Source: Escherichia coli
Lineage (GTDB): Bacteria; Pseudomonadota; Gammaproteobacteria; Enterobacterales; Enterobacteriaceae
Strand: one strand, 5' to 3'
DNA length: 64,000 nucleotides
NCBI RefSeq assembly: GCF_003334785.1
Contig: NZ_QOWV01000004.1
Below the pieces are notes generated by a model. The model was not told the origin of the DNA. It saw only the letters and a program-made list of their open reading frames with translations, and ran no database searches. The position numbers were made by a program, and so were the translations under genes. Shown here piece by piece: positions 6,562-30,777 of the stretch (the stretch's first letter is position 1; each line of letters begins with the position of its first letter).

Positions 6562-6640
6562 AAAAAAATACCGACCCGGGTACAAGTCCCAGGTCAGCTA
6601 CAATTCACATTTTGATAGTCATTTTACCCTGAAGTTCCCG
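6562..6640 (-). ncRNA. graL: greA leader region with intrinsic terminator (candidate GraL leader RNA); boundaries approximate
   Basis: On the minus strand a GACCUGGG..CCCGGGUC hairpin followed by a U7 run lies about 95 nt upstream of the greA start; 5' end not determinable from sequence. Confidence 0.35.
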
Positions 6641-6714
6641 AAGGGTCATCGTTTACTTTATAGGGCGTTGCGCCGTAGTATGACGGCTCGATTCCAGGTT
6701 GTTAGCGCGAGATT

Positions 6715-27561: not shown

Positions 27562-28211
27562 TCAGCCAGAACCAGCACGCGGGAAACCAGCTTATCAATG
27601 CCGCTCGCCGCTTCTGCAATGTTCTGCGCCAGCATATATGCTGGGGTGGTGACAATCTTATTGTCTTCATCAACCACGATATCATCGACAGGACACGGCA
27701 CATGCTCCGCGCCCATCTCTTCCAGCACTTCTGCGGTATCGATATCAGTACCGATGGTCAAACGCAGCGGGAAATCGAAAATTTTCGGCAGCATCGCCGG
27801 GGCAATACACATAAAACCAAGCGGTTTTCCGGCCTGATGCATCGCTTGTGCCAGCGCCTTTAATTCACGGTCAACGGTGCATTCGCTACCAAGACTGGCA
27901 AAATTGCTTAAATTCTTCGCCGCGCCAAACCCCCCCGGCACAATCAACGCATCCAGTTCAGCGGCATCGGCCTGGGCCAGAGGACGGATTTCACCGCGCG
28001 TTATTCGTGCCGCTTCAATCAGCACATTGCGCGTTTCCGTCATCGCTTCGCCAGTTAAATGGTTGATAACATCAACCTGCTGCTTATCCGGTGCAAAGCA
28101 GACCGCCTGCGCACCGCTGCGTGAAATAGCTAACAACGTCAACACCGCTTCATGAATTTCAGAACCGTCATAGACGCCGCATCCGCTCAGAATTACGCCA
28201 ATTTTCTTCAT
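27558..28211 (-). CDS. elbB: DJ-1/PfpI-like protein ElbB
   Basis: 217 aa from ATG ([23 protein letters not shown]...). Confidence 0.92.
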
Positions 28212-28328
28212 TGTGATCATCCTTTCGCAATTGACTGAAACACATTAATTTTTTTAATAAAAATGGTACGCATCACACATTTAACTGATTCATGTAACAA
28301 ATCATTTAAGTTTTGCTATCTTAACTGC

Positions 28329-28449
28329 GTGCGGCCTGAAAAACAGTGCTGTGCCCTTGTAACTCATCATAATAATTTACGGCGCAGCCAAGATTTCCCT
28401 GGTGTTGGCGCAGTATTCGCGCACCCCGGTCTAGCCGGGGTCATTTTTT
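28329..28449 (+). ncRNA. arcZ: Hfq-dependent small RNA ArcZ (SraH/RyhA)
   Basis: GTGCGGCCTGAAAAACAGTGCTGTGCCC...GCGCACCCCGGTCTAGCCGGGGTCATTTTTT; terminal hairpin plus U-run overlaps the arcB stop codon on the opposite strand. Confidence 0.88.
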
Positions 28450-30777
28450 AGTGGCTTTTGCCACCCACGCTTTCAGCACTTCTACGTCGTGACGCCACTC
28501 TTCTTTCATCTCTTCAATCCATTCACCGACGTTATCTTCCCAGGCCGGAAGGTCAGGAGACTGAATTTGCTGACCCAGCTGTTGCAGATGGCGTAACCCC
28601 ACTGACCCCGCCGCACCTTTAATTTTATGTCCTTCCTCAACAATGCCTTTTTTATCCTGCGCCGTCAGATTCGACTCCAGCACGCTGACATAGCCCGGCA
28701 TCATCTTCTCAAACACCGCTAACCCGTCGGTGATCAGCTTCGGTCCTACAAGTTCGAGATACTGTTCCAGCATGGGAATATCGAGCAATGCTTCTGATTT
28801 ACTGTTCTCTTCTGTCGTCATCGTACTCTCCTCATCATCCTGGGTATCCCAGAATTTCTTGATCATCGCGGTTAGCGCCGGAACAGAAAGCGGCTTACTC
28901 AGCACATCATCCATTCCAGCATTGAGGTACTCTTGTTTGTCTTTCAGCACGTTAGCGGTTAAGGCCACCAGCGGCGGTAAATCCTCGCGCGGATAACGTT
29001 TCGTCAGTTCACGAGAGATATCCAGCCCGGTCATATCTGGCAACTGAATATCCAGCAACACCAGGTCGTATTCGCCCGGTTTAAACATCTCCAGCGCCGC
29101 CTTGCCGGTCATGGCGACATCAACGCTGTTACCTAATTTTTCCAGCACAGAACGCGCAACAATCACGTTCAGTTCAATGTCTTCCACCAGCAGCACATTC
29201 AGCGCCGGTAAAGGCATATCGTCTTCATCAAACGCATCATCGACCTCTTCTGCTACCGACGGTGCGTGGATCGTCAACGTAAAGGTTGAACCTTTGCCCT
29301 GTTCGCTGGTAACCGTAATATCGCCGCCCATATTTTTCGCCAGACGACGAGAAACGGCCAGACCAATACCGGTGCCGGTGGCAGGTTTACCGCCATGACT
29401 GTCTTTCACCTGGTAATACATGGCGAAAATTTTATCCAGCTCATCCTGCGGAATGCCGATACCAGAGTCTTCCACTTCAAAATGCAGCATATCGCCTTCA
29501 TCGTAGCGCACGCGCACGGTAACCTGGCCTTGCTGGGTGAATTTGACGGCGTTACTGATGAGGTTCCACAGGATCTGCCGTAAACGCGTCCCGTCGGTAA
29601 TGACCTGATGCGGTAATGGCAGCGTCGGCTCCAGGTTAAAGCGCAATCCTTTTTGTTGCGCCTGCAATGCGGAGAGATTTTCCAGATCGGCAAGGAAGCT
29701 GGTGAAATCAACCGGTTGATTATCAAGCTGGACCTTGCGCCGTTCCATCTTATCCATGTCGATAATATCGTTAAAGATATTCCCCAGCGTGACGGCCGAA
29801 ACATGGATGGTCTTGAGATATTTTTCCTGCTCGGCGGTGAGTTCGGTATCCAGCAGAATGCGGCTCAGACCGACGATACCGTTCAGCGGTGTACGCAATT
29901 CGTGACTGATGGTGGAGATAAACGTCGTTTTGTCGCGGCTGGCCCGTTCAAGCGCATCCTGATACCGCTTACGCTCGGTAATGTCGCGACCAAAGCCCAT
30001 CAAACCGTGACGTTTACCCACGCGGTCGTAGTACGGCACTTTACGGATTTCAAAGCAGGCTTTGCGCCCGTCCGGGTAATCCAGCCACTGTTCATAGGTC
30101 AGTGACACATTATGACGGAACACTTTTTCATCGGTTTCAATGACTTTTGCGGCGGCTTCCGGTGAGTAAACATCAGCAGGTTTCAGGTGAACCAGTTGTT
30201 TTTCGCTTTTTCCGGTCAGCAGCTCCATCGCGCGGTTACAGCCGGAAAACTCTTTATCTTCGTTACGATAAAAAACCAGGTCGGGTGAAGCATCAAGGAA
30301 GGAACGTAAGAATGAGGATTGCTGCTCGAGCTGAATTTGTGTCTCTTCGCGCTCTTTGATTTCAATTTTCAGTTGGCCGAAGGTTTCCTGCAGTTCTGCT
30401 TCCGCTTTTTCACGAACGGCAATTTCCTGATTTAGCTGGGCAATATTATCTTTTAACTGAACGTTGAGGCTCAAATCGCGCTCGCGCATCTCCTCCAGTT
30501 TTTGCACCAGCCGTGACAGACGTTGTCGTGACTCCTCCAGTTGCTCGACGACCACCGATAGAAAGTAGACCGCCCACGGCGTAATCAGCAAACCAAAGAA
30601 GATAGAACGAATAACATCAATGCTTTCGACCTGACCATGCAGCACCATGGTTACCGCCATTTGTACCACAATGGCAAGAACGACGAGGGCCAGCGCCAGC
30701 AACATTGAGAAGCGCACCAGACCTAACTTCATCATCAGGTCAACATAATACTGCGCCAGCAGACGAATTTGCTTCAT
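28441..30777 (-). CDS. arcB: Aerobic respiration control sensor kinase ArcB
   Basis: 778 aa; MKQIRLLAQYYVDLMMKLGLVRFSMLLALALVVLAIVVQMAV...; HisKA, receiver and Hpt regions. Confidence 0.97.
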   Translation of the reverse strand: MKQIRLLAQYYVDLMMKLGLVRFSMLLALALVVLAIVVQMAVTMVLHGQVESIDVIRSIFFGLLITPWAVYFLSVVVEQLEESRQRLSRLVQKLEEMRERDLSLNVQLKDNIAQLNQEIAVREKAEAELQETFGQLKIEIKEREETQIQLEQQSSFLRSFLDASPDLVFYRNEDKEFSGCNRAMELLTGKSEKQLVHLKPADVYSPEAAAKVIETDEKVFRHNVSLTYEQWLDYPDGRKACFEIRKVPYYDRVGKRHGLMGFGRDITERKRYQDALERASRDKTTFISTISHELRTPLNGIVGLSRILLDTELTAEQEKYLKTIHVSAVTLGNIFNDIIDMDKMERRKVQLDNQPVDFTSFLADLENLSALQAQQKGLRFNLEPTLPLPHQVITDGTRLRQILWNLISNAVKFTQQGQVTVRVRYDEGDMLHFEVEDSGIGIPQDELDKIFAMYYQVKDSHGGKPATGTGIGLAVSRRLAKNMGGDITVTSEQGKGSTFTLTIHAPSVAEEVDDAFDEDDMPLPALNVLLVEDIELNVIVARSVLEKLGNSVDVAMTGKAALEMFKPGEYDLVLLDIQLPDMTGLDISRELTKRYPREDLPPLVALTANVLKDKQEYLNAGMDDVLSKPLSVPALTAMIKKFWDTQDDEESTMTTEENSKSEALLDIPMLEQYLELVGPKLITDGLAVFEKMMPGYVSVLESNLTAQDKKGIVEEGHKIKGAAGSVGLRHLQQLGQQIQSPDLPAWEDNVGEWIEEMKEEWRHDVEVLKAWVAKATKK

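Follow-up and report, generated by a model that had tools for sequence, protein, structure and literature searches.

The arcZ-arcB locus

The window, by which we mean the whole 64,000-nucleotide stretch of Escherichia coli DNA that was analysed, contains two convergent genes whose ends run into one another: arcZ on the plus strand, which encodes a small RNA (sRNA), and arcB on the minus strand, which encodes a sensor histidine kinase. The features of the two genes are as follows.

28329-28449, plus strand: ArcZ primary transcript, 121 nt, placed by Rfam, by the MG1655 annotation and by a published Term-seq 3' end
28348-28388, plus strand: ArcZ 5' stem-loop, GCUGUGCC (28348-28355) paired with GGCGCAGC (28381-28388), from the cmscan structure line
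28394-28449, plus strand: conserved 3' part of ArcZ with the target-pairing core, the processed form of about 56 nt, coordinates counted back from the 3' end
28441-30777, minus strand: arcB, sensor histidine kinase ArcB, an ORF of 778 aa ending in KATKK and the stop, the longest ORF nearby

When the whole window was scanned against Rfam, two matches lay above threshold, ArcZ and the greA leader. The ArcZ match (RF00081) runs from 28329 to 28436 on the plus strand, takes in the full model (1-106) and scores 120.8 bits (E = 4e-27), where the gathering score is 66. The greA leader (RF01769) is a known element and lies upstream of greA, at 6563-6684 on the minus strand (127.5 bits). The sequence of 28329-28449, which opens with GTGCGGCCTG and closes with GGGGTCATTTTTT, can be placed directly on the MG1655 map: with an offset of 3322248, the annotated arcZ (b4450, 3350577-3350697, plus strand) falls on 28329-28449 and the annotated arcB (b3210, 3350689-3353025, minus strand) on 28441-30777. 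MG1655 and the window are 100% identical over 28100-28700, and the 601-base region around arcZ was found in 5417 of 5426 complete E. coli genomes. At the sequence level, all the marks of the ArcZ family are present, namely the model score, the position by arcB, the conserved 3' core and the terminator. The initial annotation, which had been made from the letters alone, had already named the sRNA as ArcZ and given its strand and coordinates; these were correct, since they agree with the Rfam match and equal the b4450 annotation, and the comparison with published ArcZ that it had proposed returned an identical MG1655 sequence across arcZ and its flanks.

Taken together, these results make it very probable that what lies here is arcZ (known earlier as sraH/ryhA), which encodes the Hfq-dependent sRNA of Enterobacterales, and that it and the convergent arcB are a cis-antisense pair acting within a feedback loop. 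No evidence opposes the identity, and the objections weighed below concern the pairing mechanism alone. Earlier work has described the 5' part of ArcZ as variable and lost on processing, while the 3' part is conserved (PMC11331407); Hfq binds ArcZ, and cleavage by RNase E leaves a 56-nt 3' form that is active on rpoS, flhD and other targets (PMC11331407). The predicted cut site lies at 28393/28394, after GA and before UUU.

The ArcZ terminator and its overlap with arcB

The 3' end of ArcZ lies within the coding sequence of arcB, and three features describe the junction.

28423-28441, plus strand: ArcZ intrinsic terminator stem-loop, ACCCCGGTCTAGCCGGGGT (ACCCCGG, TCTAG and CCGGGGT in succession), from the terminator scan
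28444-28449, plus strand: ArcZ terminator U-run, U6 after a CA spacer (28442-28443), complementary to the arcB codons for Lys777 and Lys778 (AAA AAA)
28441-28449, both strands: arcZ/arcB coding overlap of 9 nt, made up of the stop TGA (28441-28443) and two Lys codons

The hairpin has 7-8 bp and a folding energy of -14.5 kcal/mol. The terminator-pattern scan is by itself not significant (two found as against 1.0 expected), and the reality of the terminator is instead settled by the covariance-model score, by the conservation of the hairpin with compensatory changes (see below) and by a published Term-seq 3' end. According to the initial annotation, terminator and U-run occupied 28422-28449 and covered the arcB stop codon. 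The location and the U-run stand, although the stem starts at 28423 and not at 28422; the overlap with 28441-28443 likewise stands, except that the hairpin stem takes up just one base of the TGA (28441, in the closing A-U pair) and the remaining two (28442-28443) are spacer.

The 3' ends of the two RNAs

For the ArcZ strand, an RNA 3' end has been mapped by Term-seq (Adams et al. 2021, PMC7815308 Suppl. file 1), for which MG1655 was grown in LB to two densities and in M63. The tables list a plus-strand 3' end at MG1655 3350696, classed as 'internal arcZ, antisense arcB' (PMC7815308), which corresponds to window position 28448, within the U-run and one base before the annotated arcZ end at 28449. 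The file, which covers three growth conditions, gives three rows for arcZ, two of them with coverages of 50512 and 89664 (PMC7815308). A plus-strand RNA ending at about 28449, whose absence the initial annotation had named as refuting evidence, is thus on record with high coverage.

While plus-strand RNA reaches 28448, the arcB mRNA must reach 28441 for translation. Because this mRNA must hold its own stop codon, it carries the complement of at least the last 8-9 nt of ArcZ. Complementarity between the 3' ends of the transcripts had been proposed; this is supported for those 8-9 nt, that is the arcB stop and the last two codons, and no further. On the minus strand, the terminator scan returned no hairpin followed by a U-run in 27900-28900, folding of 28205-28446 gave no convincing arcB terminator, and the two U5 runs (28343-28339 and 28263-28259) have no compact GC-rich stem ahead of them. 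Minus-strand 3' ends at MG1655 33503xx-33506xx are absent from the Term-seq tables (PMC7815308), and so is a row for elbB. Since arcB lacks an intrinsic terminator downstream on its own strand, its mRNA probably carries much more of the ArcZ complement, and probably continues through arcZ toward the same-strand elbB-mtgA. We note that the interval between the arcB stop and the co-directional elbB-mtgA (28212-28440, minus strand) holds no intrinsic terminator, and that arcB may read into elbB.

An alternative is that the hairpin at 28423-28441 acts as a bidirectional terminator which ends both ArcZ and the arcB mRNA, in which case the RNAs would overlap by only about 20-25 nt. The stem is indeed nearly palindromic and folds on both strands, the minus strand has an A-run upstream of the stem, and no other terminator-like site was seen after arcB. 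The minus-strand copy of the hairpin is, however, followed by GCGCGAAUACUG, without a U-run, so that it fails the terminator pattern, and the MG1655 interval given above has no minus-strand entry in the Term-seq tables. We therefore consider this alternative very unlikely, and a bidirectional intrinsic terminator was rejected on the missing minus-strand U-run (27900-28900 scan). In the reading we prefer, the hairpin terminates ArcZ and the arcB mRNA probably runs on through it.

Conservation of the overlap across Enterobacterales

We scanned one genome per GTDB species for the 22-mer CCTGGTGTTGGCGCAGTATTCG of the ArcZ core, which yielded at least 120 loci (L003-L122). The sample is not random, as it consists of 22-mer-positive loci among the matches listed. 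It includes Escherichia, Salmonella, Citrobacter, Klebsiella, Enterobacter, Yersinia, Rahnella and Photorhabdus, together with Xenorhabdus, Proteus, Providencia, Morganella, Erwinia, Pantoea and others. A convergent homologue of the ArcB C-terminus was found by tblastn at 120/120 ArcZ-core loci among the matches listed, and the overlap was distributed as follows.

Overlap of 9-11 nt: 99 of 120 species among the matches listed (9 nt in 17, 10 nt in 40, 11 nt in 42)
Overlap of 2 nt: 9 of 120 species among the matches listed
No overlap: 10 of 120 species among the matches listed (Pantoea, Mixta, Chimaeribacter)
Overlap of 23 and 79 nt, implausible: loci L031 and L085, probably frame errors that arose as the tblastn match was extended; not interpreted

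All 99 species with an overlap of 9-11 nt share two further traits: Lys-Lys (KK) as the C-terminus of ArcB, and a stop codon (TGA or TAA) located in the CA or TA spacer that separates the stem from the U-run. Roughly one in six species among the matches listed is without an overlap of this size. Both terminal Lys codons of ArcB are AAA, the complement of the ArcZ U-tail, in the same proportion of species (99/120 among the matches listed). The terminator itself was found throughout: a hairpin of 7-9 bp, in 35 sequence variants, is kept at 120/120 of the loci listed, the spacer being CA in 90 and TA in 30 of these 120 listed loci and the T-run 5-9 long, mostly 7-8, among the same 120 matches. 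Alignment of 97 distinct 3' sequences gave a 7-pair terminator stem with compensatory changes from GC to AU at two pairs (in 13 and 11 sequences), the other pairs being invariant. The segment 28397-28427 is invariant in these 97 sequences, which come from many genera, but 22 of its bases are the search pattern, so that the flanking bases alone are independent evidence. As a further observation, the third-last arcB codon sets the length of the U-tail (28444-28452), with GAA giving U8 and GGA, AGA, ACA or GCA giving U7; in E. coli this codon is ACT and the tail is U6, shorter than in most species.

These counts bear on whether the overlap has any regulatory role. It might be inherited gene packing, with cross-talk between the two genes running via ArcA-P at the arcZ promoter and through ordinary trans effects. 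Consistent with such a view, the coding overlap amounts to just 9 nt, ArcZ is kept without overlap in 10/120 species and with a 2-nt overlap in 9/120 (both among the matches listed), and Pectobacterium has been reported to be without overlap (PMC11331407); moreover, species in which TCA/TTA does not serve as the arcB stop codon still have this spacer, which may therefore belong to the sRNA only. The 9-nt limit and the 10/120 listed species without overlap also count against a pairing mechanism in general, as do the lack of an arcB mRNA 3' end in the Term-seq tables searched and, among the results given below, the ChIP and ArcA-box findings at arcZ and the Erwinia arcB fusion. Conversely, the geometry has been retained in Enterobacteriaceae, Yersiniaceae, Morganellaceae and many Erwiniaceae, the lack of an intrinsic terminator after arcB makes a longer complementarity likely, and reviews report both that ArcZ lowers arcB mRNA and that arcB mRNA has a role in ArcZ repression beyond that of ArcA. 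We regard mere packing as the less probable explanation, while giving it appreciable weight, and we continue to favour a cis-antisense pair inside a feedback loop.

The putative arcZ promoter

Transcription of arcZ could be assigned to the following element.

28294-28322, plus strand: putative arcZ promoter with a -35-like GTAACA (28294-28299), a 17-bp spacer and an extended -10 TGcTATCTT (28314-28322)

The putative -10 ends 6 nt before the annotated +1 (28329), and its placement derives from that annotated start only. A consensus promoter scan, which needs 9/12 hexamer matches, found nothing near arcZ; the site proposed here matches at 8/12. At low oxygen, ArcA-P is reported to repress arcZ (PMC11331407). 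ArcA-like boxes at arcZ were limited to weak matches (5/15 mismatches) in our scan, and published ChIP data showed no ArcA site in the upstream region of arcZ (PMC3798270).

A comparison of strains brought out an insertion in this promoter. In 54 of 5426 complete E. coli genomes, IS1A lies between the -35 and the -10 of arcZ (28308-28316), flanked by the target duplication AAGTTTTG; in strain C600 (L002) the IS1 occupies 680-1483. The top BLAST matches are K-12 laboratory strains with IS1 in the arcZ promoter, and the 40 listed IS1 carriers are K-12-type laboratory strains and derivatives, among them C600/EC600, TG1, RV308, NEB Turbo, CV601, GM4792 and DTU-1. At its outward-facing end the IS1 carries TTGGCA, which comes to lie 17 bp ahead of the native TATCTT. 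Judged by these motifs, the IS1 strains may transcribe arcZ from a hybrid promoter that no longer receives the native upstream control. A limited literature search found no paper on IS1 at the arcZ promoter; the genome paper of ER2796 (K-12) describes arcZ as 'missing' (PMC4444293).

The genome is almost identical to K-12 but is not MG1655 itself: the window differs from MG1655 by four SNPs in its first 43.3 kb and by the absence from yhcE of the IS5 that splits this gene in MG1655. The SNP at 28821 falls in arcB and gives V653M (codon 653) relative to MG1655.

Positions given for the MG1655 differences: 28821, 21632, 39572, 41322 and 43308

Reported mutual repression of arcZ and arcB

In the mechanism that we propose, a sigma-70-type promoter with an extended -10 would start transcription at 28329. 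Transcription ends at the intrinsic terminator, which has its stem directly next to the arcB stop and its U-tail opposite the last two Lys codons. According to the literature, RNase E cuts the 121-nt RNA to the 56-nt 3' fragment (28394-28449), which pairs in trans with rpoS, flhD, mutS and other mRNAs. Feedback would arise as ArcB/ArcA-P represses arcZ at low oxygen and ArcZ lowers arcB mRNA, with the arcB mRNA in turn thought to destabilise ArcZ.

The initial annotation had called this arrangement a known one, and rightly so, as reviews describe both the overlap and the mutual repression of ArcZ and arcB. One describes the overlap and the terminator and states that ArcZ lowers arcB and that arcB mRNA is 'speculated' to be an antisense RNA destabilising ArcZ (PMC11331407). 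Another source states that 'ArcZ destabilizes antisense arcB mRNA', for which reason deletion of arcZ was avoided and its -10 element was mutated instead (PMC3937726). The mutual repression is reported in reviews citing Mandin and Gottesman 2010; reviews also report that arcB mRNA adds to the repression of ArcZ beyond ArcA. In Erwinia, an arcB translational fusion was unresponsive to ArcZ; how much of the arcB 3' end the reporter contained is not given in the available part of that paper (PMC6895013). A limited literature search on dsRNA and RNase III found no RNase III cleavage at arcZ/arcB. We infer that the repression is due to pairing across the overlap rather than to transcriptional collision.

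Published data also show transcription of the arcZ strand well inside arcB.

29213 (MG1655 3351461), plus strand: Rho-dependent termination peak, antisense inside arcB, about 765 nt past the ArcZ terminator (PMC7815308 Suppl. file 2)

The peak has a Rho score of 15.2 (p = 9.7e-69; PMC7815308), and the DirectRNA-seq reads there number 2219 upstream and 20 downstream without bicyclomycin (BCM) as against 3049 and 418 with BCM (PMC7815308). Some plus-strand transcription thus runs up to about 0.8 kb into arcB and is then stopped by Rho, and the transcripts near 29213 may be arcZ read-through. With a Rho-dependent stop inside arcB, transcriptional interference has to be considered beside RNA pairing: collision of polymerases, or arcZ read-through running antisense into arcB until Rho, would lower arcB in place of a 3' duplex. 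The rise in downstream reads from 20 to 418 with BCM fits this explanation, as does the very high transcription of arcZ (50512 and 89664 in Term-seq), and the short U-run of E. coli (6, compared with 7-8 in most species) could permit read-through. Nevertheless, the RNAs ending near 29213 could come from an internal antisense promoter, and without BCM the plus-strand signal falls sharply across the site (2219 to 20). Interference in place of pairing therefore appears unlikely to us, although less so than the bidirectional terminator, and pairing across the overlap is the mechanism we favour.

A conjecture in two parts may be added, which we put forward as tentative and, on balance, doubtful. 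U-tail and C-terminus would constrain each other, and it may be the sRNA terminator, not kinase function, that has shaped the last residues of ArcB; separately, the cis repression of arcB is possibly carried by arcZ read-through, with its Rho stop 765 nt inside arcB, and not by the 9-nt overlap.

Our results bear out the arrangement as a real and conserved one, which earlier work had already described. The arcB overlap is part of a described feedback loop, and the analysis adds no new biology to it. Its additions are modest: a species count of the stop/U-tail geometry (99/120 among the matches listed), the finding that no arcB 3' end is present in the Term-seq tables searched, and the observation that the terminal Lys-Lys codons of ArcB are the complement of the Hfq-binding tail of the sRNA. 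The locus matters as ArcZ connects ArcB/ArcA, which senses oxygen, with the general stress response via RpoS, and also with motility and mutagenesis; it further illustrates that a real sRNA with its terminator can be recognised from raw sequence.

Comparison with known systems

The locus belongs with ArcZ (SraH/RyhA) of E. coli and Salmonella (RF00081): the sequence in the window is that of MG1655 arcZ, and length, start, terminator and convergence with arcB are alike. The 3' core (the 22-mer) is identical to that of at least 120 other Enterobacterales species. Among convergent cis-antisense pairs of an sRNA and an mRNA with overlapping 3' ends, GadY/gadX of E. coli is an example. The arcZ-arcB pair resembles such pairs in that the sRNA lies opposite the 3' end of the mRNA, the complementarity there would be perfect and each RNA is reported to affect the level of the other, but it differs from them in that ArcZ is mainly trans-acting and Hfq-dependent, with many distant targets, and that the coding overlap in cis is 9 nt only. 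Overlapping bidirectional terminators (Ju et al. 2019, cited in PMC7815308) are similar in that convergent genes share one GC-rich hairpin; unlike these, the hairpin at arcZ-arcB is followed by a U-run on the ArcZ strand alone, and the arcB strand fails the terminator pattern.
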